A stretch of 64,000 nt of DNA, from contig JBEKIL010000004.1 in assembly GCA_050011775.1 (NCBI GenBank), positions 99,825-163,824 on the forward strand, given 5' to 3'. Within the stretch, counting starts at the first letter, position 1, and the number at the start of each line of letters is the position of its first letter. This document shows positions 19,980 through 43,904 of the stretch, piece by piece. This DNA comes from Bacteroidota bacterium (GTDB lineage: Bacteria > Bacteroidota > Ignavibacteria > UBA10030 > CAVZMI01). The position numbers and the translations under genes were made by a program. Under the pieces are notes generated by a model. The model saw nothing but the letters and a program-made list of their open reading frames with translations. It was not told the origin of the DNA and did no database searches.

Positions 19980-20107
19980 ATACCTGCAACAATCACAGGC
20001 ATTCATTCGTAACTGTAATATATAAAGATATTGCGGTTACGATCGAATTCATTTAATAGCAATGAAGTAAATCGCCGAGATAAAGTGCATTGTTATGCAA
20101 GTTAGGC
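19980..20107 (+). other. Degenerate attC-like site
   Basis: Right end GAGATAAAGTGCATTGTTATGCAA-GTTAGGC resembles GAGACAAAGTACGCTGTTAAGCGA-GTTATGT at 15623-15653. Inner hairpin CGTAACTGTAAT/ATTGCGGTTACG. Left core not clear. Confidence 0.5.
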
Positions 20108-21509: not shown

Positions 21510-21633
21510 AATGAATATGTGTGTACTCAGATATAAATTAATATTACACGGCAATTTTACGGTGACATTTTATATTTCATATATTTATAATTTTATGCCA
21601 AAATATATTTAATCATTAATTAAAATAATTACC

Positions 21634-23076
21634 ATGAAAAAACTATTAATTATTCTTGTCTTCATTAACAGTATGTCTGTTAGTGTACATTCTCAGACAC
21701 AGAGACGATTCTCGGTAAAAGAGATAAAAAGTGACTTAGAGTATCTGCGCAGTACCCTGGAAGCTTCGCATTATAATCTTTATGCCTATACGAAAAAAGA
21801 AGTTTTTGACAGCGCATATAATAAAATAGAAAGTTCTATTAATGATTCACTAACCTCTATGCAGGCTTACAGACTTTTCCAACCCTATCTCGCATTGGCA
21901 AAGATAGGTGAATGTATAATCTTTTATCCTTTTGGTGAGTATTTTGGAAATTACCTAAGACAGGGTGGAACCGTATTCCCATTGAATCTGGGTTTCTCAA
22001 AAGGCAAGGTATTTGTCAAAGATAACTTTTCCAATGAATCCCAGATTTCCAAGGGCGATGAAATCCTGTCATTCAATGGAAAGCCGATCAAGGAATTCAT
22101 GGAAGGTGTTTATCGTTTCATGTCCGGTCAGAGTGAATACTATAAAAACTCTTATCTTGAAAACATAAACTTTTCAAGAATCTATTGGTTCATCTACGAC
22201 AAGTGCGATGTCTTTCATTTGGAAATCAAGAAAAAGGATGGAAGCAAAATAAAGGTGCAACTCCCCGCCATTTCGGGATGGGAATACGAAGGGAAACTCT
22301 CCAAACAATATCCTCCGCGCAATCCAGCGAGGGAATTCCGGCTCATTGATGACGTCGCCTATTTGTATCCGGGTGAATTTGTAAACAATCCGGGGAGACA
22401 CGATGACATGATGAGCCCGACAAAATGGGACAACACTGAATTCTGTCACTTTATTGATTCCGCGTTTACCGCATTTCGTAAAGCCGGAGCGAAGAACCTG
22501 ATCATTGATCTCAGAAATAACCTGGGCGGAGCCAACAACTTTAGCGATTACATGATTTCCTACATTGCGTCAAAACCATTTACGTTTTGCTCAAAAGCCA
22601 AGATCAGAACCAGCCGGATAACCAAAGACTTCTGGAAAAATATCAACATCCCGTCTCTCGAGGAAATGAAGCAGGCGATCCTTTCGCACGATGATGGCTC
22701 CCGCTTTGAAGTGTCCTTGCCCGAAAATCAGCCCCAACCCGATTCAATACGGTTTACGGGACATGTGTATGCCTTGATCAATCGATTCTCCATCTCCAAC
22801 ACGACATCCGTGGCGTCTGTCATTCAGGATTACCGTTTAGGCAAATTGATTGGCGAGGAGACGCCGGATTTCGTATCATTCTATGGAGGCACCCATCAGT
22901 TTAATTTACCAAATACACAACTCGCGGTTACCTATCCAAAGGGACTCATGATACGGCCGAATGGGGATACGACACCTCGGAGTATAATTCCCGATTACAT
23001 AGTCGAGGATAATATGTCAACTGATAAGGATGAGATATTGGATTATACATTGGAAACAATTGCTAAGAATAAATAA
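21634..23076 (+). CDS. S41 family peptidase, secreted
   Basis: Signal peptide, LIIDLRNNLGG, YALINRFSISN, GKLIGEET, IIPDYIV. Confidence 0.8.
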   Translation: MKKLLIILVFINSMSVSVHSQTQRRFSVKEIKSDLEYLRSTLEASHYNLYAYTKKEVFDSAYNKIESSINDSLTSMQAYRLFQPYLALAKIGECIIFYPFGEYFGNYLRQGGTVFPLNLGFSKGKVFVKDNFSNESQISKGDEILSFNGKPIKEFMEGVYRFMSGQSEYYKNSYLENINFSRIYWFIYDKCDVFHLEIKKKDGSKIKVQLPAISGWEYEGKLSKQYPPRNPAREFRLIDDVAYLYPGEFVNNPGRHDDMMSPTKWDNTEFCHFIDSAFTAFRKAGAKNLIIDLRNNLGGANNFSDYMISYIASKPFTFCSKAKIRTSRITKDFWKNINIPSLEEMKQAILSHDDGSRFEVSLPENQPQPDSIRFTGHVYALINRFSISNTTSVASVIQDYRLGKLIGEETPDFVSFYGGTHQFNLPNTQLAVTYPKGLMIRPNGDTTPRSIIPDYIVEDNMSTDKDEILDYTLETIAKNK

Positions 23077-23118
23077 AAACCTTAATTGAATCATTTAGTA
23101 AAATTAAAATCAAGTATT

Positions 23119-24231
23119 ATGAAAAACATCGTAATGAAAAGTATTTCTTATCTCCTTTTAATTTTTCTTGTTGTAATTTTTACAGCTTTCGATGAAAAGA
23201 AGAATGAAAGTGACAAGATAAAAACAGTAAATGGAAGTTTTATTTCTTTTTTAGAAATGGATAAATTCCTGCATTCTCAAATGGATTCAATAGGATTGCC
23301 CGGATTATCCATAGCCATAATCAATGATTCAAAAATCATCTACCATCGAACTTTAGGTGTAACCAATGTTGAAACAAAAGAGAAAGTATCAGAAGAAACC
23401 CTCTTTGATGCCGGTTCTTTATCAAAAACACCTTTTACCTATCTTGTAATGAAAATGGTTGAGAAAGGAATATTGAATTTGGATCAGCCTCTATATACTT
23501 ACTTACCATATCCTGATATTGCATATGACGATCGTTATAAATTAATAACGGCCCGCATGGTTTTGTGCCATACATCCGGCTTTGTCAATTGGAGGTTCCT
23601 TAATAAGGATAATAAGTTGGATATTAAATTTACACCTGGAACCCAGTTTCTCTATTCCGGAGAGGGTTTTGAGTATCTGGCAAATGTTGTGGCTTATCTG
23701 AAGAATATTAAAAAAAATGATCTTCAGGATTTATTTGAAAAAGAAGTTGCTGCTCCCCTAGGAATGCAATACGCTTTTTATACATGGAACGATTATGTAG
23801 AAAAACTGCGTGCGACTGGACATGTTGATGGTAAGGTTTTTTCTACAGAATGGGGTACAAGCACTAAAAATCCAAATTTTTATGCTGCATATAGCTTGCA
23901 GACGGAAGCAATAAGTTATGCCAAATTTCTAATTGCAATGATACGGGAAGAAGGATTGAAAAAAGCGACTTACGATGAGATGTTAAAAGTCCATGTCGAA
24001 ACTCCTTCCAAAACCGATAGTATTCCATACTGTCTTGGCATAAGGATGAAACACTCAGAGTTTGGTAATGAATACATGCATGATGGTGATAATTACAATT
24101 TTACTTGCGCTTTTATGTTCAACCAGGAACAAAAGTTCGGTTATGTATTTTTCACTAACTGTAATAAAGGAAGTGAGTTCAACAAAAAGTTGGAGCCATT
24201 TTTAACGGGAAAGGATGCCTCGCGAAGATAG
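23119..24231 (+). CDS. Serine hydrolase, beta-lactamase family
   Basis: SxxK (SLSK), VLCHTSG, YSGEG, HDG; signal peptide. Confidence 0.88.
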   Translation: MKNIVMKSISYLLLIFLVVIFTAFDEKKNESDKIKTVNGSFISFLEMDKFLHSQMDSIGLPGLSIAIINDSKIIYHRTLGVTNVETKEKVSEETLFDAGSLSKTPFTYLVMKMVEKGILNLDQPLYTYLPYPDIAYDDRYKLITARMVLCHTSGFVNWRFLNKDNKLDIKFTPGTQFLYSGEGFEYLANVVAYLKNIKKNDLQDLFEKEVAAPLGMQYAFYTWNDYVEKLRATGHVDGKVFSTEWGTSTKNPNFYAAYSLQTEAISYAKFLIAMIREEGLKKATYDEMLKVHVETPSKTDSIPYCLGIRMKHSEFGNEYMHDGDNYNFTCAFMFNQEQKFGYVFFTNCNKGSEFNKKLEPFLTGKDASRR

Positions 24232-24440
24232 GCACGTCTTTTCTTATTCCGACGTTCCGTCAAAACTCAACTTGATTTGCTGAGTCGGCTTTGCTACTTT
24301 TTTGGTGTTCATGCGATTGTTCCTTTCTGAGTTTAATGAATATGACAAGTTTGTTATTCTAAGAATATACATCGCCATGGGCTTTGTTACACCTCAGATT
24401 TCAACGAATAGCGGGACATCATCCCAAAAGAAGAAAAAAC

Positions 24441-25565
24441 ATGAAAAGAAATTATGTTGTTTGTTGCAGCTTGCTCCTAGTATTCATTGCGATCACATTA
24501 ACCACAACATTTGCCTTTAAAAAAGAAAATGCTGAAAAGATCAAAACTTTAAGCGGTAAAGAAATAACCGTGGCAGAAATGGATGAATATCTAAAAGCCC
24601 AAATGGATTCATTGAATATCAAAGGTATATCTATTGCTATTATCAATGATGCAAAGGTTGTATACCATCGTTCTTTTGGCATAGCTGATGCTTATTCTTT
24701 GGACACGGTGAATGATCAAACCTTATTTCAGGCGGCTTCCGTATCTAAATCAATATTCGCATATTTTGTAATGAAAATTGTAGAGAAAGGGTTGTTAGAT
24801 TTAGATACTCCTTTGTACCGGTATATGCCTTATCCGGATGCCGAGAGTGATCCACGCTATAAGCTAATTACGGCCCGCATGGTACTCTGCCATACATCAG
24901 GCTTTCCTAACTGGAGACCGAACTATACCGGGAAATTAGAAATAGAATTTACTCCCGGGACCAAATTTTCATATTCCGGCGAGGGTTACATGTATTTAAC
25001 GAAGGTCATAGCACATCTAACGAATACTGACTTGTCAAATCTAGATAGCGTATTTCAGCAGGAAGTCTGCAAACCGTTGAATCTGAAGCATGCATATTTT
25101 GGCATGAATAATTACGTAGCAAAACATTTGGCAAAGGGGCATGATGAAAATAAAATAGTTTATGACAAGGACTTTAATATAATAAATTTCAATTCAGCAG
25201 GAGGTTTATATACCGAAGCGATCAGTTTTGCAAATTTTCTTATCGCCGTAATGGAAAATAAAGGTTTGAAACAGGCAAACATCGATGAAATGCTTAAAAA
25301 ACAAGTAATAGTACCTAATGATGACAACCTAAGAAAGTACTCTGGTGTTATCGAATGGGGTCTTGGATTTGAGAGAAAACCTTCAATCTATGGAATAAAA
25401 ATTGCACATGGAGGAAATAATCAGGGCTTTTCATCATCATTTATGTTTAATAAAGAAAAAAAGTTTGGATATGTATTTTTTACCAATAGTAATTCATGCC
25501 ACAATTGGGGATGCCCCGAGTTATGGAGAAAATTAGAACCTTTTCTGATAGATCGCACTAAATAG
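24441..25565 (+). CDS. Serine hydrolase, beta-lactamase family (tandem paralogue of 23119-24231)
   Basis: SxxK (SVSK), KLITARMVLCHTSGF, FTPGT..YSGEG, HGG, KFGYVFFTN, KLEPFL shared with the upstream gene. Confidence 0.88.
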   Translation: MKRNYVVCCSLLLVFIAITLTTTFAFKKENAEKIKTLSGKEITVAEMDEYLKAQMDSLNIKGISIAIINDAKVVYHRSFGIADAYSLDTVNDQTLFQAASVSKSIFAYFVMKIVEKGLLDLDTPLYRYMPYPDAESDPRYKLITARMVLCHTSGFPNWRPNYTGKLEIEFTPGTKFSYSGEGYMYLTKVIAHLTNTDLSNLDSVFQQEVCKPLNLKHAYFGMNNYVAKHLAKGHDENKIVYDKDFNIINFNSAGGLYTEAISFANFLIAVMENKGLKQANIDEMLKKQVIVPNDDNLRKYSGVIEWGLGFERKPSIYGIKIAHGGNNQGFSSSFMFNKEKKFGYVFFTNSNSCHNWGCPELWRKLEPFLIDRTK

Positions 25566-26693: not shown

Positions 26694-29600
26694 ATGTATT
26701 ATCGAGGTATGACATTTCTGTGTTCGGCAATTGTATTGATTGCATTATGTTCGACTCTTTTATCACAACAAGTTTTGGACGAGCCGGCTTTTTCTTCGAC
26801 GAGGGGATTTTACGAAAATAAATTCACATTGGAGATCGCATACAATTCTCCCGGCGCAACCATTAAGTATACCAGAGATGGAACAAACCCATATACATCA
26901 TCGACATCTAAAAGTCAATCTTCACCGGCTATTCTCACCATTGATCCGACAGATACACTTGACAGGGACCGGGCACCGGGTGTAGTAATAAGAGCCTGTG
27001 CCGTAAAGGATGGAATACTATTAACAAAAGTAGCAACTCATACATTTTTATTCATTGATAAGATAGAAGAACTTTCTCCTGATGGCAAAAAGCCGGGGCC
27101 CTCATGGCCGGATCCGAATCCCGGGACACAATTTACACAACAGGGAATGGACTACGGTATGGATCCCGACATCCTGCATGACCTTCGATACCGGAATAAA
27201 ATTAAAGATGCATTGTTATCCATTCCGACCATTTCGCTGGTCACCGATCTGAAGAATCTATTTGATCCGGATTCGGGGATTTATATGAACGCGCTTCCTC
27301 ACGGTCGTGAGTGGGAAAGGCAAACATCCGTCGAGTTATTGAATCCGGACGGGACCACCGGTTTTCAAATTGATGCCGGCCTGCGTATCCGTGGAGCATG
27401 GGGAAGAACCGGAATTAATTTTAAACATGCCTTCCGTCTTTTTTTCAGGAAAGAATATGGTGAAGCAAAATTACGCTATCCCTTGTTCGGAGATGAAGGA
27501 GTGACGGAATTCGACAATGTAGATCTCAGAACAAGCCAGAATTATTCCTGGGCTTTCTACGGCGATCCTGAAGGTCGGAAAAATACGGAACTCCGGGAAG
27601 TTTTTTCCAGGGATACACAAAGGGATATGGGACAGCCTTACACACGAAGCCGCTATTATCATCTATATATCAACGGTACCTATTGGGGACTCTATCAGAC
27701 TCAGGAAAGATCTGAAGCTTCTTTTGGTGCATCATATTTAGGCGGTTCCAGTGAAGACTATGATGTCATAAAAGTCGACGTCACAGACAGCCTGAGTATT
27801 CCCAATTATCATATTGAAGCCACCGATGGTAATTTAGATACCTATCGACGACTCTGGGAAATGGCCACAGTGGGTTTTAATACCGATGAATCTTATTACA
27901 GAATACAGGGCCTGAATCCCGACGGCTCAAGAAATCCTGAATACCCCATTCTGGTAGATATAGATAATCTGATCGATTTCATGCTCTGTACCATCTATGT
28001 TTGTGATCCCGATGGTCCTACAGCCGGTGGAATCCCAAACAATTTCTACGGGATATACAACAGAAATGGGGATCGGGGTTTCGTTTTTTTCAGGCACGAT
28101 GCGGAACACAGTCTCATGTACCCCGAGGTCGACAATACTGTTCAGACGAGCATCGGTATGGAGTTTAGACATTTCAACCCTCGATGGCTGCATCAACGAC
28201 TCAGCTATCATCCCGATTACCGTCTTAAATTTTTCGACCGTGTATACAAACATTTATTCAACAATGGTGCTCTGACGCTCCAGGCTTGCCGGAACCGGTT
28301 TCTGGATAGAAAACAACAAATGGATGAAGCTATTATTGCCGAATCGGCCCGTTGGGGAGATGCACATTCCGATATTCCCAGAACAAGAGACGACGACTGG
28401 CTGCCGGAAGTAAATTGGGTTGTCGATCAATTTTTTCCCCCACGCGTAGATAATATGCTGAAGCAATTAAGAGCTCAGAAATTGTATCCCGATTTCAATC
28501 CGCCTGTTTTTAATCTGACGGGCGGCAAAGTCTCAAAAGGAACGGTCTTTACCATAGATACAACAGAAGGCCCCGTCTATTATACGGTGGATGGGAATGA
28601 TACCCACATGCCTTCATCGCTGCAGAAAGCATTTCAAACAATACTGGTTCCGCGAAATGCGGAAAAACGCGTTCTTGTTCCTACCGCAAATATAGACATT
28701 AAATGGAGATATGATCTCAATTTCAACGATACTGCATGGCCGTTGTGCAACAGTTCTCCGGGCGGTATCGGTTATGATCTTGGTTCTAGGTATGAGGATC
28801 TGATATCGTTCGACATTGAGAAACAAATGTATAACGTGAACAGCACATGTATGATTCGAATCCCTTTCGAAGTAACCCAGGAGCAACTGAATGATTTTAA
28901 CTATATGACGCTGCGAGTGCAGTACGATGATGGAATTATTGTATATCTCAATAATAGAAGCGCGATACTGATACGAAATTCTTCCGGCATCGTCAACTGG
29001 AATTCTACTGCCAACAAGACGAATGACGGTAAATTCATCGAGTCTTTTGACATCACCCCATATTTATCGAAACTCGTTCCGGGTAAGAATCTGCTCGCGA
29101 TTCAAGCCATGAATGTTGCTCCCGCAGACTCTGATTTTTTTATTTCTGTCGAATTGATTGCGGGAAATCCCATGAAATCCAGCAGTCCCCTTTCACCCAG
29201 CGCCGTTGCCTATACGGGTCCCATTACGATAGAGCATACGACCAGAATTAAGGCTAGGGTCTATAAGGATGAGAAGTGGAGTGCACTCAATGAGGTTATC
29301 TTATGGGTACCTGAAGGGAATGACAATCTGAAAATATCGGAGATCCATTACCACCCGCTGGGCGAAGAAGGAATCGATGAAAAGGAGTTCGAATTTATAG
29401 AACTTAAAAATGCGGGTACAACATCGCTCGATTTGAGCGGAATGACATTTTCAAAGGGAATAAAATATACATTCCCCTCAGGGACAATCATCGAGCCCGA
29501 CTCTTTTCTCGTTCTGGCATCCAATGCCCAGGTATTTGAGACCCGTTATCCATTCCCTCCCGATGGCGAATATAACGGACAACTGGATAATGCAGGAGAA

Positions 29601-30095
29601 ACCATTATTTTGCAGACAAGCAAAGGTGATACAATTATTAATCTGACATACGGCAATGATTATCCATGGCCGCACTCACCGGATGGATCGGGGTATTCTC
29701 TTGTCCGTAAGCCGGAGAGATTATACGACGATGAGAATGATCCTTCCGGCTGGTCCAGCTCTGTCTACATACACGGGAATCCGGGCTTTAATAACGACGC
29801 CGATACGGTCTTTCGAAAAGAAAAAATCCCAGGCGAATTCCGTCTTCTTCAAAATTATCCCAATCCATTCAATCTATTGACGATAATTTCATTCAGTCTT
29901 CCATCACGGTGTTTTGTGACTTTGAAAGTATTTGATTTGATTGGAAGAGAAGTGGCAACGATCGTCTCGGAAGAACTGTCACCCAGTACCTATATACGAC
30001 AATGGAACGCGAAAGGTATGGCAAGCGGAATCTATTTTTATCAGCTTCGGGCGGGGAATTATCTTGAAACAAAGAAATTAGTTTTACTTAAGTAA
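26694..30095 (+). CDS. T9SS-secreted CotH-kinase-family protein with Fn3-associated and lamin-tail domains
   Basis: PAFSSTRGFY..IKYTRDG, WERQTSVE, LRIRG, LYINGTYWGLY, LTD-like ISEIHYHP..EFIELKN, C-terminal NYPNPFN..KKLVLLK. Confidence 0.82.
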   Translation: MYYRGMTFLCSAIVLIALCSTLLSQQVLDEPAFSSTRGFYENKFTLEIAYNSPGATIKYTRDGTNPYTSSTSKSQSSPAILTIDPTDTLDRDRAPGVVIRACAVKDGILLTKVATHTFLFIDKIEELSPDGKKPGPSWPDPNPGTQFTQQGMDYGMDPDILHDLRYRNKIKDALLSIPTISLVTDLKNLFDPDSGIYMNALPHGREWERQTSVELLNPDGTTGFQIDAGLRIRGAWGRTGINFKHAFRLFFRKEYGEAKLRYPLFGDEGVTEFDNVDLRTSQNYSWAFYGDPEGRKNTELREVFSRDTQRDMGQPYTRSRYYHLYINGTYWGLYQTQERSEASFGASYLGGSSEDYDVIKVDVTDSLSIPNYHIEATDGNLDTYRRLWEMATVGFNTDESYYRIQGLNPDGSRNPEYPILVDIDNLIDFMLCTIYVCDPDGPTAGGIPNNFYGIYNRNGDRGFVFFRHDAEHSLMYPEVDNTVQTSIGMEFRHFNPRWLHQRLSYHPDYRLKFFDRVYKHLFNNGALTLQACRNRFLDRKQQMDEAIIAESARWGDAHSDIPRTRDDDWLPEVNWVVDQFFPPRVDNMLKQLRAQKLYPDFNPPVFNLTGGKVSKGTVFTIDTTEGPVYYTVDGNDTHMPSSLQKAFQTILVPRNAEKRVLVPTANIDIKWRYDLNFNDTAWPLCNSSPGGIGYDLGSRYEDLISFDIEKQMYNVNSTCMIRIPFEVTQEQLNDFNYMTLRVQYDDGIIVYLNNRSAILIRNSSGIVNWNSTANKTNDGKFIESFDITPYLSKLVPGKNLLAIQAMNVAPADSDFFISVELIAGNPMKSSSPLSPSAVAYTGPITIEHTTRIKARVYKDEKWSALNEVILWVPEGNDNLKISEIHYHPLGEEGIDEKEFEFIELKNAGTTSLDLSGMTFSKGIKYTFPSGTIIEPDSFLVLASNAQVFETRYPFPPDGEYNGQLDNAGETIILQTSKGDTIINLTYGNDYPWPHSPDGSGYSLVRKPERLYDDENDPSGWSSSVYIHGNPGFNNDADTVFRKEKIPGEFRLLQNYPNPFNLLTIISFSLPSRCFVTLKVFDLIGREVATIVSEELSPSTYIRQWNAKGMASGIYFYQLRAGNYLETKKLVLLK

Positions 30096-30263
30096 CACAC
30101 ACTTGTATCCACCGCTTGAAAAATCACTTTCTATATGTATTTTATTGCTTTTTTCCTCTCTGTTTCGTACAATCATCAAACAGAATATGTCTACATGGTC
30201 AGTAATTCTAACTGCCATCAGAAAAACTATAATGTAAATGATTATCAGAAAAGGAATCTACAA

Positions 30264-31952
30264 ATGTTTAATCGAACTCGGCTTTTATTAACTTGCGGAT
30301 TGTTTATTACTGCAGTTATGTTTCCAGCGGCGTTTGTACAGGCCCAAACCGACACCATTCGGGTGGTATGTGTCGGTAATAGCATCACCGAAGGATATAC
30401 TACAGTTAATCCCGCAACTGACGGCTATCCTGCACAGCTTGGAGTATTGCTCGGAAGCGGGTGGAACGTGAAAAATTCCGGAGTATCCGGACGCACAATG
30501 CTTAAAAACGGCGACTTCCCGATCTGGAATGAACAGAAGTTTAAGGACGGACTCGCCTTCAATCCCGATATCGTAACTATCTGCCTCGGGACAAACGACA
30601 CTAAACCATGGAACTGGGATGATCATAAAGGTGAATTCATCGGCGACTATAACGCGATGATCGATACGTTCAGGTCACTCCCAAGTCATCCGGTGGTGTG
30701 GCTCTGTCTTCCTCCTCCATCCTTCAGCGATGCATTCAGTATCCGGGATTCGGTGATAAACGCTGACATCATTCCTATGATCCAACAAATTGCTGCCAAC
30801 AAAGAATGCCAGATTATCGACTTTAACACTCTGCTGAAAAGTCGCTCCGACGTCGTCCCAGACGGAATTCATCCTAACGGTGCCGGATCGGCGGTGATGG
30901 CTAAATTACTCTATGAAAAACTCACCGGCAATACGATCATAACTGTAAATGACGAGAATTGTGCGGCAGGAAAAACCGTAAGCGTAAGCGGATCGATCGA
31001 TTCGCTCGTGTACGGCGGAGCGAATCTTGTGGACGGCAAAAGTACAACGCAATGGATTACCCTTGGATTCCCCGCAGAGGCGACCATCGATCTCGGCTCG
31101 ACTCAGATCATAGATTTATTCAGGGTCGATTTCACCGGTACGCGGGAAGCGAATGCGGGTTATCAATTTCGCATCGAAATTCCGTCAGTAACAGGCGGAT
31201 GGATAACGGCACTCGATCGCACAACAAGAACCGACTCGGCGGCCACAATACTTGAAAAGACAGATTCTATCTCAGCGCGATTCATACGTCTCACAGTCAC
31301 AGGCGCCGCCCGGCCCAGAGGCGATACAGTAAGCATAGCCGAAATCCGCGTACTGAAAGCAAACGGAGGGGCACACTCACCTGTAATTTCATTCAAAAAG
31401 ACAGGTGCCTCGGGTTCGAATATAAAATATGACATCAAATTCCAGTGGCCAAACGGCGCCGTAGGAAAAGTAATTCCGTATCGTCATAAAAATGTGGGGG
31501 GACTCGATGCCGTCAGAGGTTTCATGGATGGAAGTACGTACACAATAACCAGTGAATACATCAAAACGGTAAATTACAATGTCTATTACGCCGAGACATT
31601 TCTTAATGGAATTGAGGTAATCTCGGATACAACGGTAATCGGTGCCCTTCCGACTGGAATCAAAGAAATAGAATCGCCCGAAATGCCGTCGGAAATCCAG
31701 CTCCTGCCGTCCTATCCTAATCCATTTAATCCATCGACTACAATTTCATTTATTCTTCCATCAAAATCATTTATTACGCTTAAGATTTTTGATGCACTAG
31801 GAAGAGAAATTACGACACTATTTTCGGGACAGCTGCAGGCAGGATTTCATTCACGGCAATGGAATGCGGTAAACATGCCGAGCGGTGTTTATTTTTATCG
31901 CCTCCAGGCTGGTGAATTTGCTCAAACGAGAAAGTTAATCTTGATGAAATAA
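30264..31952 (+). CDS. T9SS-secreted SGNH/GDSL esterase with a discoidin (F5/8)-like domain
   Basis: CVGNSIT, GVSG, LGTND, DGIHPN, NLVDGKSTTQW, C-terminal YPNPFNPST. Start placed at ATG 30264 after AAGGA. Confidence 0.85.
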   Translation: MFNRTRLLLTCGLFITAVMFPAAFVQAQTDTIRVVCVGNSITEGYTTVNPATDGYPAQLGVLLGSGWNVKNSGVSGRTMLKNGDFPIWNEQKFKDGLAFNPDIVTICLGTNDTKPWNWDDHKGEFIGDYNAMIDTFRSLPSHPVVWLCLPPPSFSDAFSIRDSVINADIIPMIQQIAANKECQIIDFNTLLKSRSDVVPDGIHPNGAGSAVMAKLLYEKLTGNTIITVNDENCAAGKTVSVSGSIDSLVYGGANLVDGKSTTQWITLGFPAEATIDLGSTQIIDLFRVDFTGTREANAGYQFRIEIPSVTGGWITALDRTTRTDSAATILEKTDSISARFIRLTVTGAARPRGDTVSIAEIRVLKANGGAHSPVISFKKTGASGSNIKYDIKFQWPNGAVGKVIPYRHKNVGGLDAVRGFMDGSTYTITSEYIKTVNYNVYYAETFLNGIEVISDTTVIGALPTGIKEIESPEMPSEIQLLPSYPNPFNPSTTISFILPSKSFITLKIFDALGREITTLFSGQLQAGFHSRQWNAVNMPSGVYFYRLQAGEFAQTRKLILMK

Positions 31953-32239
31953 CGAGCGAGAAGAACATGGCGTGCGAACATTGCGCCGCTCACAGAAATA
32001 AATGAGTCGTTATTAGTCCCGCCAACCCCACTGTGGAGCGTGGGGCGTAAAAAGCACGAATACGGCGGGATGCATAAAACGCATTCGCGGCGGAACGTCA
32101 TTTTTATGCGAAACATTTTGTTCCCTACACATGCTAAGGCCCAAATGGCAAACGATTGTTTTAAATTGTTTATGGGTTTTTCTACTTGAATAGAGATTAT
32201 TAGATCAAACCTTACCAACTACACGAAAGGAATATATTC

Positions 32240-32887: not shown

Positions 32888-33137
32888 TTCTTTTTGATCT
32901 TTGGAGACCGTCTTTTTATCGCAGTGTATCCAATTGCAAGAAGAGCATTTACATAGATAGAATCCAGATTACCATCAAATACGATGCAGGTGCACATCAG
33001 ATAATAGCAGAAAAAATATAAAATGAATTATTCCGTTGCTCATCCCGCACTGAAAGTACGGGACAACGGTACGGCATTTTTGCTGCACACGTCAGTTGGT
33101 ATTATCCTTTTAAATATAAATGAAAGGAGACATTACT

Positions 33138-35219
33138 ATGCGTGCCAATTCTCACTTTTTATTTCTCATTGGATTTTTCGTACTCGGTCAGGCCACTTTG
33201 AAGGCGCAGTGGAGTCAGACGAACGGACCAACAGGCGGTTGCATTAATGCACTCACGACACTTGGGTCTACGATTATTGCTGGAACGGAAGCAGGAGCAT
33301 TCCGATCCACCGATAATGGCGCGCACTGGACAGCGGCAAACACGGGACTTACTAATTACGAAATTCTCGCCCTCACATCGGGTGAGCGCATCTTCATGGG
33401 AACAGGTTCCGATTTGGTATCATCGACAGATCAGGGAGTGACTTGGTCATCATCTCTTATGAACGATTATGTTCTTTCTATTGCCACAAACGGTACATAT
33501 CTCCTTGTCGGAACATACAGCGGTGTTTCACTCTCAACCGATAATGGTACAAACTGGACGCAGGTGAACAACGGATTGACGAATACTACCGTTCAGGCGC
33601 TCGCCATCGTTGGATCTACGTTTTTTGCCGGAACCGGAAACGGATTATTCCTCTCGACAGATCAAGGTGCAAGTTGGCATGCTCCTACAACAGGCCCGAC
33701 AAATTCGAATATCAGATGCTTTACAGTAAAAGACACGAATGTATATGCAGGTACATGGGGCGGCGGTGTGTTTGTCACATCAGACACCGGTGCACATTGG
33801 TCTGAGACGAACAACGGATTTTCTTCGTCAGAGATCGTGATGTCCTTGTACACCTTTGGTACGGTGCTCTGTGTCGGGACAGGAAACGACGGTCCATACG
33901 TCTCGACTGATGATGGTGCGCATTGGAATTCTACGGCATCGCTGCCGGGGGGTGAAGTGCATGCGTTCACCTCGAATAACACAACACTCTTTACAGGGAC
34001 ACGCAGTTCTTTGTACGCCTCCACCGATACAGGAAAGCACTGGACAGAAGCATGTGACGGTATGATTGCTGCATACTGTTCTGCACTAGGGGGTTCTGGT
34101 TCGACTATCTATGCTGCTTCTGGTACTAACGGTGTGTATCTTTCCACAAATGAAGGAACAAGCTGGACAGCATCGAACAATGGATTAGATATCCCTATCG
34201 CGTATACAATTGCCGTAGACGGATCGTTTATTTATCTTGGCGACAACGGCGGAGCTCATCGTTCAACGGATGGCGGTGCAAATTGGTTAACAGCTAATAC
34301 AGGTTTCGTGAATTACAATCCTGTTAATGCATTTTTTGTAGATGGTACAAATCTGTACTCTGGCGGAGATGATGGAGTATATCTATCTACTGATCATGCC
34401 GCAAACTGGACACCGGCAAAAACCGGATTACCTCAAGAGAATCCCCACAATATAATCTATGCACTCGGCAAAATTGGCTCTAAACTCATTGCAGCAACGT
34501 ATGATTCCGGCTTCTTTGTATCGACGAACAATGCAGCTAATTGGGCACCATCCAGTACAGGCCTTCCGCTACCTGCGAGGGGGAAAAAATTCGTGACAGT
34601 CGGAACAAAAATCTATGCGGGATTGCAGAATAATAGAGGTGTATATGTTTCGGCAGATAGCTGCAACAGCTGGACAGCTATCAATGAAGGATTAACGGAT
34701 TTGGACATAAATGCATTGGCAAGTGACGGAACAAATCTGTTTGCCGGCACACTTAATTGTGTATCCATTTTGATGCATGGAAGTACGAGTTGGATACCTA
34801 TGGCAACAGGGCTTCCTGTGGTGGGGTCGAATGAAATAGATGCGTTGCTTGTTAATGGTGATTACCTTTATGCCGCAGTCGGGAGCTCAGGCGTCTGGCG
34901 GCGTCTCTTATCAGAGATGACGGATGTGAAAAATTACACCGCTCAGAATCAGCCTGATGTATTTACCCTAAAGCAAAACTATCCAAATCCGTTCAATCCA
35001 ACCACAACAATTTCCTTTAGTCTTCCGACACCATCCAAGGTGTCTTTGAAAGTATTTGATTTGTTAGGAAGAGAGGTTGCAATAATTGTTTCCGAAGTAC
35101 TATCGGCTGGTGATCACTCTCGGCAATGGAATGCATCAGGTTTTGCGAGTGGTATTTATTATTACAGATTAGAGGCTGGAATTTTTGTTGAAACAAAGAA
35201 ACTTGTTTTACTTCGATGA
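33138..35219 (+). CDS. T9SS-secreted BNR/beta-propeller repeat protein
   Basis: Signal peptide ..LKAQWSQTNGP, S-T-D-x-G-x-x-W Asp-box repeats, C-terminal NYPNPFNPTT..KKLVLLR; RBS AAGGAG. Confidence 0.88.
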   Translation: MRANSHFLFLIGFFVLGQATLKAQWSQTNGPTGGCINALTTLGSTIIAGTEAGAFRSTDNGAHWTAANTGLTNYEILALTSGERIFMGTGSDLVSSTDQGVTWSSSLMNDYVLSIATNGTYLLVGTYSGVSLSTDNGTNWTQVNNGLTNTTVQALAIVGSTFFAGTGNGLFLSTDQGASWHAPTTGPTNSNIRCFTVKDTNVYAGTWGGGVFVTSDTGAHWSETNNGFSSSEIVMSLYTFGTVLCVGTGNDGPYVSTDDGAHWNSTASLPGGEVHAFTSNNTTLFTGTRSSLYASTDTGKHWTEACDGMIAAYCSALGGSGSTIYAASGTNGVYLSTNEGTSWTASNNGLDIPIAYTIAVDGSFIYLGDNGGAHRSTDGGANWLTANTGFVNYNPVNAFFVDGTNLYSGGDDGVYLSTDHAANWTPAKTGLPQENPHNIIYALGKIGSKLIAATYDSGFFVSTNNAANWAPSSTGLPLPARGKKFVTVGTKIYAGLQNNRGVYVSADSCNSWTAINEGLTDLDINALASDGTNLFAGTLNCVSILMHGSTSWIPMATGLPVVGSNEIDALLVNGDYLYAAVGSSGVWRRLLSEMTDVKNYTAQNQPDVFTLKQNYPNPFNPTTTISFSLPTPSKVSLKVFDLLGREVAIIVSEVLSAGDHSRQWNASGFASGIYYYRLEAGIFVETKKLVLLR

Positions 35220-36770: not shown

Positions 36771-36846
36771 ACATCCAAAAGAAATAAATACGCTATACCA
36801 CGAAGTGGTACTGTTCCACCGTATAGCGTCTTTACAGATGTTATAC
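36771..36846 (+). other. Degenerate attC-like site
   Basis: AAATACGCTATAC pairs with GTATAGCGTCTTT (12/13), outer ACATC/GATGT, right core GTTATAC at 36840. Confidence 0.55.
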
Positions 36847-36878
36847 GCCATGTGCCCGTCATATTTACAGAGGATCGA

Positions 36879-37364
36879 ATGGAATGGATATCCGGAATTA
36901 TTAGCATCGGAAATAAACTTTTTCCGTGGATTGGGAAAATATGGAACAAACGCCGCTTTGGTCCTCGAATTCAACTAGACCTGAGCTGGGATCATCCACA
37001 AATCTACATTGCCGGTGAACCTATTAGAACATGGCGAACCCTTTTGATCCAGGCAATAGGCGCAAAAGAAAGTGAGTATGAGATAGCATCGGGTTATTTA
37101 GAAGCACGAGAATTCAACACGAAAAAATTTATCCTAATTACAGATTTATCAAACTTGATTCTACTACCACTACACCTAGATGCTAATCGACAAAAAGATT
37201 TTGAAATAGATGGAACAACGGTGACAAAGCATCTTCGTCGTATTTTTAAGGAAAATACTCCAATAGAAATTCGTGTGAATGTTCAGGATTATTACGGCAC
37301 ACGAATAATCAGCAAACCATTTCAAGTTACTATAACTGAATTGGAGCGCAAGGAAACTCGATGA
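36879..37364 (+). CDS. Hypothetical protein (161 aa), sole ORF of a complete cassette
   Basis: RBS AGAGG before ATG 36879; bounded by attC-like sites; no recognisable motif. Confidence 0.7.
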   Translation: MEWISGIISIGNKLFPWIGKIWNKRRFGPRIQLDLSWDHPQIYIAGEPIRTWRTLLIQAIGAKESEYEIASGYLEAREFNTKKFILITDLSNLILLPLHLDANRQKDFEIDGTTVTKHLRRIFKENTPIEIRVNVQDYYGTRIISKPFQVTITELERKETR

Positions 37365-37419
37365 GAAGTCCCTGTCTAATAATAGACTATATAATTGAAT
37401 ATTATACGGGCACACGGGC

Positions 37420-37585
37420 GTATAACAAGCGTGCCCACGACGGTCGCACATTTGCTAAAGCTTTTGTAAATTCGATTTGAGAATAGATAATAGTGCTCCC
37501 TCAATACCATGCCGGAGCTTAGAGTATAAATAATTCATTCGCAAGTTACCGGCATGGTACTGCGTGGGCACGCCAGACGTTATGT
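37420..37585 (+). other. attC recombination site (166 bp)
   Basis: GTATAAC-AA-GCGTGCCCACG ... CGTGGGCACGC-CAGAC-GTTATGT: perfect 11-bp inner arms plus complementary ATAAC/GTTAT cores. Confidence 0.8.
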
Positions 37586-37612
37586 GAAATTGTGCCCCTC
37601 AAGGAAAATACA

Positions 37613-40216
37613 ATGGATAAAAAATTTTTATTCAAACTTTCGAGTACACCAACAACGACTTACTCCGATGCCGAAGTATTATTCCGAGACCTAAAAAACC
37701 GTGATCCGAAAATTCAACATCTTTGGTCCCACCAAGCTGATATTCTGAGGGAATATCATAGGAGCATTGATCAAATTGACATCGCACTCGAATTACCTAC
37801 AGGTGCCGGCAAAACACTAGTCGGCTTGCTTATTGCTGAGTGGCGCAGACTTTCCCTCAATCAACGGGTTGCCTACCTTTGCCCTACTCGCCAGCTTGCA
37901 TACCAAGTTGGCCAAAAAGCTACTGAATATGGAATAAAGGCACATGTCTTGGTCGGATCACAATCTCTATATCCCGCAGGTCAATTTGCAGAATATGCGT
38001 CAGCGAAAGCCATTGCTGTGACTACTTATTCGGGTTTTTTCAACACGAATCCAAGAATCGATCGGCCTGAGACTGTCGTGTTCGATGATGCCCATGCTGG
38101 TGAGAATTATATTGCTAAAATGTGGTCAATGAATATATCTCGTTTTGACAACAAGACTTTATTCGATCAGATCGTGGATCTGTTTTGCTCGGAACTACCC
38201 GATTACTCAATTAGTACTTTAAAAGATGATGATGCTAGACCATATCAGAGACAGTTGGTTGAAATGGTTCCAGTTCCAAGATTCCTTAAAAAATTACAAC
38301 CACTAACAGACCTTCTGGACGCCTCAACAGCAGATACCGAACTCGCTTACCCTTGGAGTTTGATAAGAAATAAGCTGGCAGCTTGTTGTGTTTTTTTCTC
38401 TTGGTCTGATATTCTAGTCCGGCCTTGGATACCTCCAACATTAACTCATCTTCCATTTGCCTCTTCGAAGCAAAGGATCTATATGTCTGCAACTATCGGT
38501 GCAGGCGGCGAGCTTGAGCGTATTATTGGAGTGCCTTCGATTCATAGAATTCCAGTTCCTCAAGGTTGGGATAAACAGAGCACTGGCAGGAGGTTGTTCA
38601 TTTTCCCGGATCATTCCTTCTCCTATACTGAGTACGATGATTGGTTGACGAGGACTTTGGATTCAAAGGAACGATCGCTAGTGCTCACACCGCATGGTTT
38701 ATCCTTGCGATCTTTTTTGGAAACAATGGCACAATTCGGCCTCACTCACCAGATACTTAAAGCACAAGACGTCGAAGAAACATTAGATCCCTTTATAAAT
38801 TCCTCAAACGTTCTTCTTGCTCTGACGAATCGCTATGATGGCATCGATTTGCCTGGTGATAGTTGTAGAATATTGGTTGTCTACGGATTACCCACGGCTG
38901 TGAATCTCCAAGAAAGATTCCTATGGACAAAACTCGGTCTTACCACTGTACTTAAAGATAGAATCAGAACCAGAATCACCCAAGCAGTCGGTCGATGTAC
39001 TCGCAACTCCACAGATTATGCAGTGGTGCTAATGATTGGAGAATCATTATTCGATTTCTGTGTAAAACACGAGAATAGGTCAGAACTTCACCCAGAACTA
39101 CGTGCAGAGATAGACTTTGGAATTGATAATTCTAGCCAATCTAACATAGGCGAATTGACTGCTTTGATTGAATTGTTCTTAAATCGCGACGCGTCTTGGA
39201 ATCAAGCAGAAGCAGACATTAGCAAGAGACGAGATGAGACGCTCCATCCCCCACCCGCCTATGTCGGAGTTCTACGGACAGTAGTCCATTACGAAGTAGA
39301 CTATCAATATGATCTGTGGAAAGAAGATTATTCTCAAGCTTTAGTGAAGGCGACTACTATTATTGACAATCTTTCTGGCGACGAGCTGGCCGGATATAGG
39401 GCTTTATGGAATTATTTTGCAGGATGCGCTTCATATCAACTTGGTCTTGTATCAGGAAAGAATGAAATGATACAAACCGCTGCAGACCGGTTCTTACGTG
39501 CATCACAGGCTGTCCGTACATTATCCTGGTTCGCCCGTTTAGCTCACGAATTCGGTGCAACACCGACCCGGCAATCTCAATCTCAATACCTTACAGTACT
39601 AGCGACTGAATTTATCAATTCCTATTTGATGAATTTGGGGACTGTTGGAAGACGCTTTGATAAAGTATTATCAGAGTTTGAATCTAAAATCCGAGTTACG
39701 GATTCTGATAGTTTTGATCAAGGATTAACCGAACTTGGTAAAATGTTAGGATTCGATGCCGAAAAACCCGAAGGCGTAGGAGTCCCTGATAGCGTTTGGC
39801 GTATTGGTGGAGAGTTCGTGCTTCTATTTGAATCAAAGAGTGATGAAAGCCCAGATGATAAGATATCCATCAGAACCTGTAGACAAGCGCAAGGCCATTT
39901 GAATTGGGAGCGATCCAGACCATTCTTTACCCAAAACGCCAAACTTCATTGTATTGTTGTCACTCCCCGTTCAGTGCTCGATAAGGCCGCTTTGCCACAT
40001 TCCGATAATCTCTATTATCTTTCATCGGACGCCATTAGAAAACTCTTCAGAGAAGCCGATGCTTGTTTACGACTGATTAGGAGTAAATCACCCGACCTGG
40101 AAAGCGAGCAACGGCTTGGGTTAATTCAAGCCGAACTTCTACAGGCACAATTGATACCTGAAGCAATTATTAAGCATTTAACTTCAACTCGGCTTGCTGA
40201 TATAACATGCAAATGA
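37613..40216 (+). CDS. SF2 (DinG/XPD-like) helicase with C-terminal PD-(D/E)xK nuclease, Hna-like candidate anti-phage protein
   Basis: Q motif LWSHQ, LPTGAGKT, YLCPTRQL, VFDDAH, MSAT, DGIDLP, QAVGRCTR; nuclease PD-x13-ESK. Start placed at ATG 37613 after AAGGA. Confidence 0.8.
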   Translation: MDKKFLFKLSSTPTTTYSDAEVLFRDLKNRDPKIQHLWSHQADILREYHRSIDQIDIALELPTGAGKTLVGLLIAEWRRLSLNQRVAYLCPTRQLAYQVGQKATEYGIKAHVLVGSQSLYPAGQFAEYASAKAIAVTTYSGFFNTNPRIDRPETVVFDDAHAGENYIAKMWSMNISRFDNKTLFDQIVDLFCSELPDYSISTLKDDDARPYQRQLVEMVPVPRFLKKLQPLTDLLDASTADTELAYPWSLIRNKLAACCVFFSWSDILVRPWIPPTLTHLPFASSKQRIYMSATIGAGGELERIIGVPSIHRIPVPQGWDKQSTGRRLFIFPDHSFSYTEYDDWLTRTLDSKERSLVLTPHGLSLRSFLETMAQFGLTHQILKAQDVEETLDPFINSSNVLLALTNRYDGIDLPGDSCRILVVYGLPTAVNLQERFLWTKLGLTTVLKDRIRTRITQAVGRCTRNSTDYAVVLMIGESLFDFCVKHENRSELHPELRAEIDFGIDNSSQSNIGELTALIELFLNRDASWNQAEADISKRRDETLHPPPAYVGVLRTVVHYEVDYQYDLWKEDYSQALVKATTIIDNLSGDELAGYRALWNYFAGCASYQLGLVSGKNEMIQTAADRFLRASQAVRTLSWFARLAHEFGATPTRQSQSQYLTVLATEFINSYLMNLGTVGRRFDKVLSEFESKIRVTDSDSFDQGLTELGKMLGFDAEKPEGVGVPDSVWRIGGEFVLLFESKSDESPDDKISIRTCRQAQGHLNWERSRPFFTQNAKLHCIVVTPRSVLDKAALPHSDNLYYLSSDAIRKLFREADACLRLIRSKSPDLESEQRLGLIQAELLQAQLIPEAIIKHLTSTRLADITCK

Positions 40217-40229
40217 GGGGCACAACTTC

Positions 40230-40341
40230 ATATAACAGCGGGCACCACGACACTTCATTCAAGCCCGCCACGGTGCAGTTATTAAATGGGTCGTTCGCCA
40301 TATCCCGTGTCGGGCTTGCGTGGTGCCCGCACACGTTATGC
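40230..40341 (+). other. attC recombination site (112 bp)
   Basis: ATATAAC-A-GCGGGCACCACG ... CAAGCCCG ... CGGGCTTG-CGTGGTGCCCGC-ACAC-GTTATGC: perfect 12-bp and 8-bp arms. Confidence 0.85.
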
Positions 40342-40428
40342 GCCACGCGGCTTGTTGTCTAGTCGACTAAATTCGTCATGCCTAAAAATGGCGGGAATCT
40401 TGCCCCCAGAAATAAAAGGAGGAAAACC

Positions 40429-41376
40429 ATGAAGAGCTACATGAAGCTCGGAATTCTTGCGCTCGCACTTGCGTGCTCAGTGCGAGCTCAATCGGTGCAA
40501 GGATCAGCAGAGGGAAAGCAAGCAGTGGAAGTACTCCCCCGGGCCACAGTCACCGTGCTGGTGGACAACATGGTAGGTCGCGGAGATGTGCTCGGCGAAT
40601 GGGGTGCCGCATTTCTGATCAACACAGACCAGCACCAGATTCTCTTCGATACTGGTGGGGGACAAGTCCTCATCGGAAATTCCCGAGCCCTTGGTGTGGA
40701 TCTCGCCAAAACTGAAGCCATTGTCATCAGCCATGGGCATCCGGATCACACAGGGGGACTCGATGCTGCTTTGAATGTCTGCAAGTCTGTGGATTTATTT
40801 GTTCACCCAGCCGTTTTCGAGACTAGATATTATAAGGGAGATTCAGGCGCGGTGGCTTATAGCTTCGTTTTCACCAGACAACAACTGCTTCAACGAGTTC
40901 GCAATCTGGTTGAGACGAAGGGACCGACTCTCATTTCTGAACGAGTAATGGTCACGGGCCAGGTTCCCCGACTAAACGATTTTGAAGATACCGGTTTGCG
41001 CGGGTACGTTTTCCTTGACAGCAGTTTGACAATAGAAGATCCAATTCCGGATGATCAAGCCGTGTTCTTCCGCGTTCCAGAGGGAGTCGTTATATTGCTC
41101 GGATGCGGCCACGCCGGGCTGGTCAATACAATGGAGTATGTATGCAAGCTAACGGGTGAGCAGCACATCTACGCGGTCATTGGCGGCACTCATTTGCTTA
41201 ATGCTTCTCCCTCGCGTATGCTAAAGACTATCGAAGCGCTGCGGATGTACGACGTACAGAAGATCATGCTGTCGCATTGTACCGGCCTTCGCGCATACGC
41301 ACAGCTGGCAAATGCTTTTCCAGGTCGATGCAGCTGGCCGGCTAGTGGAACCACAATCAAGTTCGGTTCTCAGTAA
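40429..41376 (+). CDS. MBL-fold metallo-hydrolase (COG1237-like) with a signal peptide
   Basis: VLVDN, GEWG, ILFDTG, SHGHPDHTGG, GCGHAG, GGTHL, HCTG. Start placed at ATG 40429 after GGAGG. Confidence 0.85.
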   Translation: MKSYMKLGILALALACSVRAQSVQGSAEGKQAVEVLPRATVTVLVDNMVGRGDVLGEWGAAFLINTDQHQILFDTGGGQVLIGNSRALGVDLAKTEAIVISHGHPDHTGGLDAALNVCKSVDLFVHPAVFETRYYKGDSGAVAYSFVFTRQQLLQRVRNLVETKGPTLISERVMVTGQVPRLNDFEDTGLRGYVFLDSSLTIEDPIPDDQAVFFRVPEGVVILLGCGHAGLVNTMEYVCKLTGEQHIYAVIGGTHLLNASPSRMLKTIEALRMYDVQKIMLSHCTGLRAYAQLANAFPGRCSWPASGTTIKFGSQ

Positions 41377-41479: not shown

Positions 41480-41759
41480 GTAAATCCCACTGGAAAGTGT
41501 GGGACGAGAAAAACCGGAACACGGAAACGGCGGACGCACATCCCACTGAATAGAGTGGGACGAAAGAGATCGAAACGCGACAGCATGGCGGACCCGCTCC
41601 GCCTCGAGATGCTCGGCAGAGCGAGGCGAGCAGACGCACGCTGGATAGGCGATGTTGAAGCAAAGGTTGGCTAAATATAAAGTGCTCGATTGCTCGCCGC
41701 CACGAAATCGAGTAAGTCGTAGTGGCGGCTCGCAACGGCAGTTTGCCTAAACGTTAAGT
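41480..41759 (+). repeat. REP-rich structured spacer ending in an attC right core
   Basis: Two TCCCACT..GTGGGACG hairpins, REP CCCGCTCCGC..GCAGAGCGAGGCGAG (41593-41630), GCCGCCAC/GTGGCGGC, TAGGC/GCCTA, right core GTTAAGT at 41753. Confidence 0.6.
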
Positions 41760-43674: not shown

Positions 43675-43904
43675 GCATAACACGCATGGTTACGATGCCC
43701 GCCTTCGTCACGACCAATTCCGTCGTGACTCCGGCGGGTAAACTGACAGCTGGTTTCGACGGACTCAATACCGATAAAGTGCAGGTATTGAATGAGTCGT
43801 TTGCCGCGGCCTGGCCCGGGGTGAATCGGCAGGCTCATCACAGAATCGGTCGAGGGCGGGTAAGTTACGGGGTCGGGGCAGCATGGGCACGTCAGACATT
43901 ATCT
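43675..43904 (+). other. Degenerate terminal attC-like site
   Basis: Left core GCATAAC. Right end CATGGGCACGTCAGAC-ATTATCT resembles CGTGGGCACGCCAGAC-GTTATGT at 37563. Internal hairpin CCCGCC..GTCACGAC/GTCGTGAC..GGCGGG (43698-43738). Confidence 0.55.

Follow-up and report, generated by a model that had tools for sequence, protein, structure and literature searches.

Why do two neighbouring gene cassettes carry, at their own two ends, inverted repeats far longer than the 7-bp R box at which standard attC models end (PMC5371416, PMC7439510)? The question is raised by a 64,000-nucleotide stretch of an Ignavibacteria genome (contig JBEKIL010000004.1, positions 99,825 to 163,824; hereafter the window, to which all coordinates without a locus prefix refer), in which two integron-type cassettes follow one another on the + strand. 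The first (C7) opens with a left arm at 36840–36859, consisting of the R′ core GTTATAC (36840–36846, crossover G↓TT) and the 13-nt extension GCCATGTGCCCGT. It carries an open reading frame (ORF) of 161 aa at 36879–37364, which belongs to no Pfam family and has a single homologue (P0122, 75% identity), and closes with a right arm at 37406–37426, made up of the extension ACGGGCACACGGGC and the R″ core GTATAAC (37420–37426). Its site, attC c (37420–37585, 166 nt), extends from this R″ to the R′ GTTATGT; it is imperfectly palindromic, and its bottom strand carries a 3-nt bulge beside AAC. The second cassette (C8) begins with the left arm GTTATGTGAAATTGTGCCCCTCA (37579–37601), in which the core GTTATGT is followed by the 16-nt extension GAAATTGTGCCCCTCA, and which ends at the ribosome-binding site (RBS) AAGGA just ahead of the ATG at 37613. 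An 867-aa DEAD/ResIII/Helicase_C_2 helicase is encoded at 37613–40216, and the right arm TGAGGGGCACAACTTCATATAAC (40214–40236) takes in the TGA stop codon (40214–40216), the extension GGGGCACAACTTC and the R″ ATATAAC (40230–40236), from which attC d (40230–40341, 112 nt) runs to the R′ GTTATGC.

Both repeats had been described in a first-pass annotation of this locus, and re-measurement returned its figures: the helicase arms are complementary at 21 of 23 positions, and the 161-aa arms (36840–36859 against 37406–37426) match at 19 positions, with a single mismatch and one 1-nt indel. Among the 52,830 GTT...AAC pairs in the window that lie 300–4500 bp apart, the helicase pair is the sole one to reach at least 19/23, the runner-up standing at 18/23. 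Pairing beyond the core was scored outward from the 7-bp core with gaps allowed, taking the best prefix (match +1, mismatch −1.5, gap −2.5). On this scale the helicase arms score 13.5 (15/16) and the 161-aa arms 8.5 (15/18); among random GTT/AAC pairs (n = 19,858), 0.2% reach 5 and none reaches 8.5. Similar matches beyond the core occur at related loci used for comparison, which are designated by L-numbers (L024, L116, L121, L123 and so on): the L116 orthologue of C7 has 12/14, an AbiJ cassette in L024 has 10/14, and four cassettes of L123 have 14/17 (I), 9/10 (II, encoding a metallo-beta-lactamase (MBL)-fold protein), 7/8 (III) and 9/11 (IV). Across the family, a cassette's own ends score a median of 5.0, versus 1.0 for non-self ends (Mann–Whitney p = 2e-4). 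Within the array, the start of the neighbouring cassette pairs poorly with the flank of the attC R″ (core 4–5/7, extension score 0–3), confirming that each arm belongs to the ends of its own cassette and not to those of its neighbour. The best-armed cassettes, C7 and C8, are those missing from the close relative L121, and arms are lacking at the array's degenerate sites. Two weaker pairs that had also been proposed, 15647/19246 and 41753/43667, score 3.0 each and fall within the non-self background (95th percentile 3.6).

The controls, limited to two known attC families, show how much of this pairing is ordinary. In 12 distinct class 1 cassettes from ten plasmids, own-end pairing continues for +2 to +6 bp past the core (score median 5, maximum 6.5), giving a total of 11–13 bp as a rule and ~16 in blaGES and catB3. 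In 19 cassettes of the Vibrio cholerae repeat (VCR) type from one chromid, the extension reaches +7 bp at most (median +3), and non-self and array-context pairings have a median of 0. The family described here shares with these canonical R boxes the G↓TT crossover, the pairing of the starting R′ with the cassette's own R″ once the molecule is circular, and the imperfect palindrome of the folded strand; it differs in an extension of +8 to +16 bp, a conserved G:C pair at +8 and a strand-asymmetric pair at +11. Extended pairing is therefore routine in known families in its short form (+2 to +7 bp), a circumstance that the first pass had regarded as fatal to its proposal, whereas the length and pattern found here are not. 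The long, patterned form (+8 to +16 bp, 15–24 bp in all) seems new: our literature searches found long outer stems described nowhere, a weak negative, as older subscription papers lie outside the index searched. Classical tyrosine-recombinase arms measure 13 bp in loxP and 11 bp in dif/Xer. A duplex arm of ~11–13 bp outward of the cleavage site would explain the 3–5 paired bp past the core in ordinary cassettes, but it leaves the pairing to +16 and the conserved wobble described below unexplained.

The arms were said to differ between cassettes, and in sequence they are indeed cassette-specific; they nevertheless have certain positions in common. When cassette starts are aligned with reverse-complemented ends, G occupies position +8 on both sides (12/16 starts, 11/12 ends). 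At +11 the starts have A (13/16) and the ends G (10/12), an indel having displaced the remaining two ends. The near-universal single "mismatch" of the outer stem is this +11 position, where A stands opposite C on the top strand and T·G is formed on the bottom strand; in the window the A falls at 36850 in C7 and at 37589 in C8, opposite the C at −11 (40226). By our own arithmetic, the chance of ~10/13 cassettes showing A/G at +11 is near 1e-9. The pattern is missing from class 1 cassettes, and a cruder position profile of the VCR cassettes revealed no +11 asymmetry. Window-wide counts of extended-core patterns did not exceed those of shuffled sequence (9 vs 6.8 and 4 vs 5.3), the patterns being too degenerate to serve as a test. 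A further common element is a TGTGCCC/GGGCACA box at +12 to +19 in the 161-aa, helicase and type IX secretion system (T9SS) cassettes, of which the same hexamer recurs in the inner stems of attC a, c and d; 11 of the 20 box copies in the window lie in or next to attCs. The idea that GGGCAC/GTGCCC copies form small hairpins presenting R″/R′ in the loop was rejected, the inner copy being replaced by compensatory changes in L116.

The consequences of the arms for folding were then predicted. Joining cassette end to start in silico adds 13–16 bp to the attC stem and lowers the predicted folding energy by ~13–14 kcal/mol, in line with the earlier expectation that the circular stem is extended. The predicted difference between circle and array forms ranges from −7.5 to −15.2 kcal/mol in nine cassettes of the family, compared with −1.5 to −9.6 kcal/mol in eight class 1 cassettes, so that the predicted extra stability of the circle is about double. 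Folded as DNA, the circular junction of the helicase cassette gives −51.6 kcal/mol for the bottom strand and −47.5 kcal/mol for the top strand, with the +11 pair forming in the bottom strand only. Canonical attC sites have an unpaired central spacer and, on the bottom strand, two extrahelical bases, usually G and T about 6 nt apart. In all nine folded sites (9/9), the predicted structure has a 3-nt bulge directly after AAC on the 5′ arm of the bottom strand, plus larger internal loops.

That the repeats delimit real cassettes is borne out by breakpoints at G↓TT in three comparisons. In L121, which has an MBL cassette with 97% protein identity to that of the window and other cassettes between its PEMT and MBL genes, homology to the window resumes at 40333–40335, where attC d has its G↓TT. 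The L116 version of the 161-aa cassette (75% aa identity) has an IS110 element behind it in place of the helicase, and the sequences diverge right after the G of R′. Finally, L127 and L123 carry an identical MBL cassette behind two different attCs, with the junction at GTTATGT. These alignments indicate that the units are integron-type cassettes and that they are mobile, the mobility being visible indirectly; as the first pass proposed, the cassettes would have circularised.

The arms are also retained where their surroundings are not. Fifteen nucleotides of the C7 right arm, ACGGGCACACGGGCG, are identical (15/15) in L116, while the preceding 41 nt after the stop codon are only ~44% identical; between the same two loci, R″ has changed in step with the cassette's own R′, and the inner stem of attC c shows compensatory changes (GTGCCCACG/CGTGGGCAC versus GTGGTTACG/CGTAACCAC). 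In L024, where the helicase is 69% identical in amino acids, the right arm is kept at 18/20 positions (L024:3700–3719) and the left arm at 17/22 (homologous to L024:1053–1076), amid neighbouring untranslated region (UTR) and coding DNA that have diverged, and beside an unrelated attC interior. Because the arms are conserved between orthologues amid diverged non-coding DNA, and because certain positions are common to the whole family, they are probably under selection. For the same reasons, the suggestion that they are a passive footprint of cassette construction finds no support. The exact fit to RBS and stop codon that had inspired this suggestion holds for the helicase cassette but fails for the 161-aa cassette, in which the right arm begins 42 nt past the stop codon and the left arm ends 9 nt ahead of the RBS.

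The first pass had also asked whether homologues of the helicase outside cassettes lack the repeats; at 40-odd other loci with such homologues, no attC was seen at the ends of the gene and all were without arms. Among the flanks of helicase homologues compared (47 at the 3′ and 91 at the 5′ side), only those of L024 resemble the arms. A metagenome scan for the helicase returned 80 loci, none with the cassette form, and look-ups of P0008–P0010 likewise gave none. The neighbourhoods examined for non-cassette homologues comprise restriction-modification and other defence islands, a conjugative-type element and ordinary genes; homologues elsewhere sit in restriction-modification, AbiJ and HicAB neighbourhoods. 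Apparent R″/R′ fusions 3′ of the helicase homologues in L002 and L007 were considered as "scars" and dismissed, their similarity to the arms lying at background (at most 9, versus 17 for L024). In the protein tree of P0001–P0016, (P0006,((P0003,P0005),((P0002,P0001),P0004))), the cassette-borne helicases of the window and L024 bracket a clade of non-cassette homologues, which suggests that the genes may have left the cassette context several times.

What, then, are the arms for? The explanation that we favour, and to which we give an even chance of being correct, is that they form an extended R-arm helix, complete only in the excised circle, in integron-type cassettes of the Fibrobacteres–Chlorobi–Bacteroidetes (FCB) group/Bacteroidota. 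The 7-bp core, GTTRYRY at the start and RYRYAAC at the end, carries the crossover G↓TT, and the first 15–24 nt of a cassette can pair with the 15–24 nt that end at its own R″. Past the core, the helix would consist of the conserved G:C at +8, two variable pairs, the A/C position at +11 (T·G on the bottom strand) and, beyond +11, a cassette-specific GC-rich clamp of 4–12 bp. In the array, 0.7–2.8 kb separate the two halves and each attC takes its outer half from the next cassette; the full helix would therefore form only after excision, and the hairpin of the free circle would be ~8–15 kcal/mol more stable (predicted) than the same attC in the array. Positions up to ~+12 would serve the recombinase arm, a part common in weaker form to all integrons, giving the enzyme a duplex arm of full length at the R box that it cleaves; the clamp past ~+12 would add stability specific to the circle. 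Folding and re-insertion of free cassettes would thus be favoured, resident attCs would be less prone to fold and excise, and the +11 wobble would bias strand choice towards the bottom strand.

Several observations weigh against this explanation. A short, cassette-specific extension beyond the core is routine in known integrons, so part of the effect is ordinary, and a long arm is not obligatory, since no extension is present in L123 IVb, L123 V or the 215-aa cassette of L124. The left arm of the 161-aa cassette is identical in L116 save for the core, yet it is no better conserved than the remaining 5′ UTR. The left helicase arm of L024 has 3–4 uncompensated changes (17/23 versus 21/23 complementary), which fits slow decay as well as selection. 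The family sample is small, at about 13 cassettes from five contigs; the link between array and recombinase, discussed below, comes from a related contig, the window having no integrase; and all of the support is computational, the energies being predictions only.

We considered four other explanations for the arms. The idea of a historical footprint, in which they are neutral, decaying remnants of cassette assembly (for example, of a gene captured in a longer palindromic proto-site), draws on the reduced complementarity of the L024 helicase arms just mentioned, on the existence of armless cassettes, on the arm abutting the stop codon in the helicase and L024 AbiJ cassettes, and on the acknowledgement that the origin of cassettes is unknown (PMC5371416). 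We consider it improbable: neutral remnants would not be expected to include a 15-nt island perfectly conserved in a diverged 3′ UTR, helicase arms that persist where the adjacent DNA and the entire attC interior do not, or conserved +8 and +11 positions in unrelated cassettes. The fit to stop codon and RBS is not general, and the shorter own-end extensions of class 1 and VCR cassettes, which have a different origin, point to a common functional need. The conservation weakens the footprint reading, which may nevertheless hold for the outermost bases. An RNA role, by which the 5′ UTR near the RBS would pair in the transcript with the post-stop region or an upstream attC hairpin and tune translation or mRNA stability, seems very improbable. 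It would account for the left helicase arm ending exactly at the RBS and the right arm beginning at the stop codon, and attC hairpins influence the translation of downstream cassettes; however, the 161-aa arms keep their distance from both signals (42 nt and 9 nt, as above), the arms are anchored on the DNA crossover rather than on translation signals, and the +11 position is a wobble on the bottom, non-coding strand but a mismatch on the strand with the sense of the mRNA, whereas an RNA helix would favour the reverse.

A role as accessory site deserves somewhat more weight, although we still regard it as unlikely. According to this proposal, the +8 G, the +11 A/C and the TGTGCCC/TTGCCC box bind the recombinase or a host protein, and the complementarity merely reflects two inverted copies flanking the R box. 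The box does recur in the 161-aa, helicase and T9SS cassettes, and its hexamer in the inner stems of attC a, c and d; copies in adjacent cassettes of the array even pair with one another (as in the array-form fold of the 161-aa cassette), and the related recombinase described below, without the IntI insertion that reads extrahelical bases, may need other cues. The box is missing, however, from the MBL, AbiJ and L123 I–IV cassettes, whose own ends still pair at length through other sequences. Complementarity within a cassette extends to the variable spacer that separates core from box (GAAAT/GAAGT, GCCA/GCCCG), and in L116 compensatory changes have taken the place of the hexamer copy in the inner stem. 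Terminal inverted repeats of another mobile element (a miniature inverted-repeat transposable element or an insertion sequence-like unit) would match the general layout of 21–23-bp inverted repeats around a gene, but neither a transposase nor a target-site duplication or flanking direct repeat is present at the two units, and the repeats start exactly at the G↓TT and AAC of the attC cores and differ between cassettes. With mere chance similarity excluded by the window-wide and random-pair scores, we give this last pair of alternatives almost no credence.

A different property of the family emerged from the attC interiors, which do not follow the genes. Those behind the orthologous helicases of the window (40237–40334) and L024 (3720–3835) are unrelated (z = −0.5). 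The interior of attC d is instead 85% identical to that of attC a (z = 15.8) and 78% identical to that of L116 c (z = 12.8), and site 2 of L024 matches site 1 of the same locus (z = 11.9). The L123 paralogues I (2233–2373) and VI (7341–7481) have the same right arm, the same R″ and the same first ~32 nt of attC, past which the two sequences diverge completely. These alignments show, at the level of sequence, that the ends of a cassette can persist through the replacement of its attC interior by one of the host array's type. As canonical bottom-strand recombination cannot part a gene from its own attC interior, another process must act; candidates are a rare top-strand exchange at R″, recombination within attCs, and homogenization. 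At L123:6620–6650, cassettes V and VI are fused with the intervening attC cleanly deleted, R″ plus AAAC being joined to the next cassette just past its core (GCGCCTAAC AAAC followed directly by GGCATTGG).

Which recombinase might act on these ends is indicated by related loci. In L123, L124, L126 and L128, a 290-aa tyrosine recombinase is encoded directly upstream of, and co-oriented with, an array of the same attC family (L123:589–1461). The related array contains the inner sequence AGCGGGCACTATGAC, identical to that of attC a in the window, and the L123-type array carries an MBL cassette orthologous to that of the window and a last attC homologous to 41669–41759. Among solved structures, the recombinase is closest to VchIntIA (2a3v, E = 2e-43); its identity to IntI1 is 33%. 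The enzyme resembles the integrase of those integrons in which intI is co-oriented with the array, but differs from IntI integrases in having no ~45-residue IntI-specific insertion and in scoring 217.8 bits, below the 265-bit cut-off of the NCBIfam integron-integrase model TIGR02249. Upstream of the gene (L123:150–480) are ~330 nt of repeats, ACTCATNGRCT, with a 10–11-nt period. On a tentative and broader view, which we think possible rather than probable, FCB-group bacteria would have a distinct integron-like branch with an IntI-related but insertion-less recombinase that would recognise, in place of extrahelical bases, an R arm of at least 12 bp bearing the +11 T·G strand mark, and with a clamp licensing the circle over the resident site, the unit of inheritance being the gene with its arms and R cores, and the interior being exchangeable.

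The array to which the two cassettes belong occupies ~15.6–43.9 kb of the + strand, with compact, co-oriented genes flanked by the housekeeping genes radA and a tetrapyrrole methylase gene. Long imperfect palindromes, edged by RYYYAAC and GTTRRRY-type cores, are present at four intergenic sites (a, c, d and f), all other sites of the array being degenerate. The four fold as long hairpins (c, 166 nt; d, 112 nt; a, 100 nt; f, 230 nt), with z = −10.5 for the d junction, attC sites in general being imperfect palindromes of ~55–150 nt or more that directly follow a promoterless ORF. The core pairs of c, d and f are mutually complementary (GTATAAC/GTTATGT, ATATAAC/GTTATGC, GCATAAC/ATTATCT); the core variant is the same as in class 1 VIM and arr-3 sites (GCATAAC/GTTATGC). 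These attC calls come from our own finder combined with folding, a crude stand-in for the IntegronFinder covariance model. The finder recovers class 1 sites but returns many false positives, on both strands, in GC-rich metagenome loci, making it unfit for array discovery; a version based on energy per nucleotide alone was useless and was dropped. Exact-pattern scans with the R′-proximal part of attC c/f gave two matches in genome contigs, both in coding sequence and attributable to chance, and either no matches or chance matches only in viral contigs. L007 and most of L116 are not clean arrays.

The term CALIN (cluster of attC sites lacking an integron-integrase; Cury et al. 2016, PMC4889954) covers two or more attC sites on one strand, spaced by <4 kb, in a neighbourhood without intI. 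In the window, attC c, attC d and the 41669–41759 site each lie <3 kb from the next on one strand, and none of the large ORFs of the 64-kb window contains a Phage_integrase/tyrosine-recombinase domain; given this cluster and the missing integrase domain, the region fits the definition of a CALIN, whereas a complete integron, with an adjacent intI bearing the IntI-specific domain, was not found in the window. It resembles a CALIN in its co-oriented attC sites <4 kb apart, the absence of an integrase nearby and the housekeeping flanks, but differs in the many degenerate sites and the unusually large cassettes (up to 3.7 kb, some with several genes). Complete integrons are reported to be rare in Chlorobi, Ignavibacteriae and Salinibacter (PMC9024848). 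Several cargo proteins have T9SS sorting domains, and named homologues come from metagenome-assembled genomes of Bacteroidota, Bacteroidetes and Ignavibacteriales, which places the host in the FCB group.

Among the remaining sites, attC a (19256–19355, + strand, 100 nt) lies behind the cassette of a 1164-aa T9SS protein, with a degenerate R″ (ACACAAA) and the R′ GTTACTT, and attC f (43675–43904, + strand, 230 nt), the final site of the array, has the R″ GCATAAC and a degenerate R′ (ATTATCT). Upstream of the 161-aa cassette is a short hairpin site (36782–36846, + strand; stem 36790–36798/36821–36829) with the R′ GTTATAC and a degenerate R″, which is kept in L116 with one compensatory pair (T–A to A–T). 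The attC-like site at 41669–41759 (+ strand) ends in the R′ GTTAAGT (41753–41759), the start of the final cassette; the position of its R″ is uncertain, and the L123 site to which it is homologous is at 7390–7488. The MBL-fold cassette starts at 40335–40351 (+ strand) with GTTATGCGCCACGCGGC, a left arm only, its matching right arm and attC having been lost in this genome, whereas the orthologous L123 cassette has both arms (16/17 complementary). The MBL-fold protein (40429–41376), which gives a weak hit to the anti-Pycsar protein Apyc1, is encoded next to the helicase (37613–40216), and the two cassettes may have a defence or counter-defence flavour.

Other features of the array concern its cargo and repeats. 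Unusually large surface-protein cassettes with T9SS tails are found at 15652–19146, 26694–30095, 30135–31952 and 33120–35219, with BNR/Sortilin, FG-GAP, CotH and GDSL lipase domains and tandem coding repeats of 120 and 156 nt. Three PF00144 beta-lactamase-family genes and an S41 peptidase gene occupy 20292–25565 with no attC between them, making this segment either a 5.5-kb multi-gene cassette or a non-cassette insertion. Direct repeats of CAACGAAGTAGTCCCGCGAAGCGGGG, in 2–3 copies, are located at 15500–15600, directly upstream of the first cassette start at 15647, and a related stretch is found at 20040–20100, before GTTATGC/GTTAGGC at 20092/20101; such stretches may be attI-like DNA present twice. 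A ~270-nt module recurs upstream of several cassette starts, with a 28-nt core at 15466, 19932, 26023 and 36612, and again in L121 (330–650, 6160–6380 and 8850–9150); because part of it is homologous to a pyridoxamine-5′-phosphate-oxidase-like gene starting at 25694 (MRRKDREI...), the copies look like recurring pseudogene fragments. Small repeat hairpins, ATCCCACTG-N8-GTGGGACGA twice plus CCCCACTGTGGAGCGTGGGG, occur at 41480–41560 and 32025–32045, positions that fall within the degenerate 3′ part of the MBL cassette and downstream of the GDSL gene.

The array form and the circle form of an attC are normally treated as nearly equivalent. If the extended R-arm helix exists as proposed, a stem available in the excised form only would explain in simple physical terms why free cassettes integrate well and resident arrays remain quiet, and the +11 wobble would constitute a new strand-selection cue. 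The retention of cassette ends around a replaced interior bears on two puzzles, the homogeneity of attC sites in sedentary arrays and the way in which cassettes are made; the existence of a distinct branch, if true, would bear further on how cassettes acquire attC sites of the host's type. For integrons outside the Proteobacteria, boundary prediction and attC models could gain from taking positions +8 to +12 into account.

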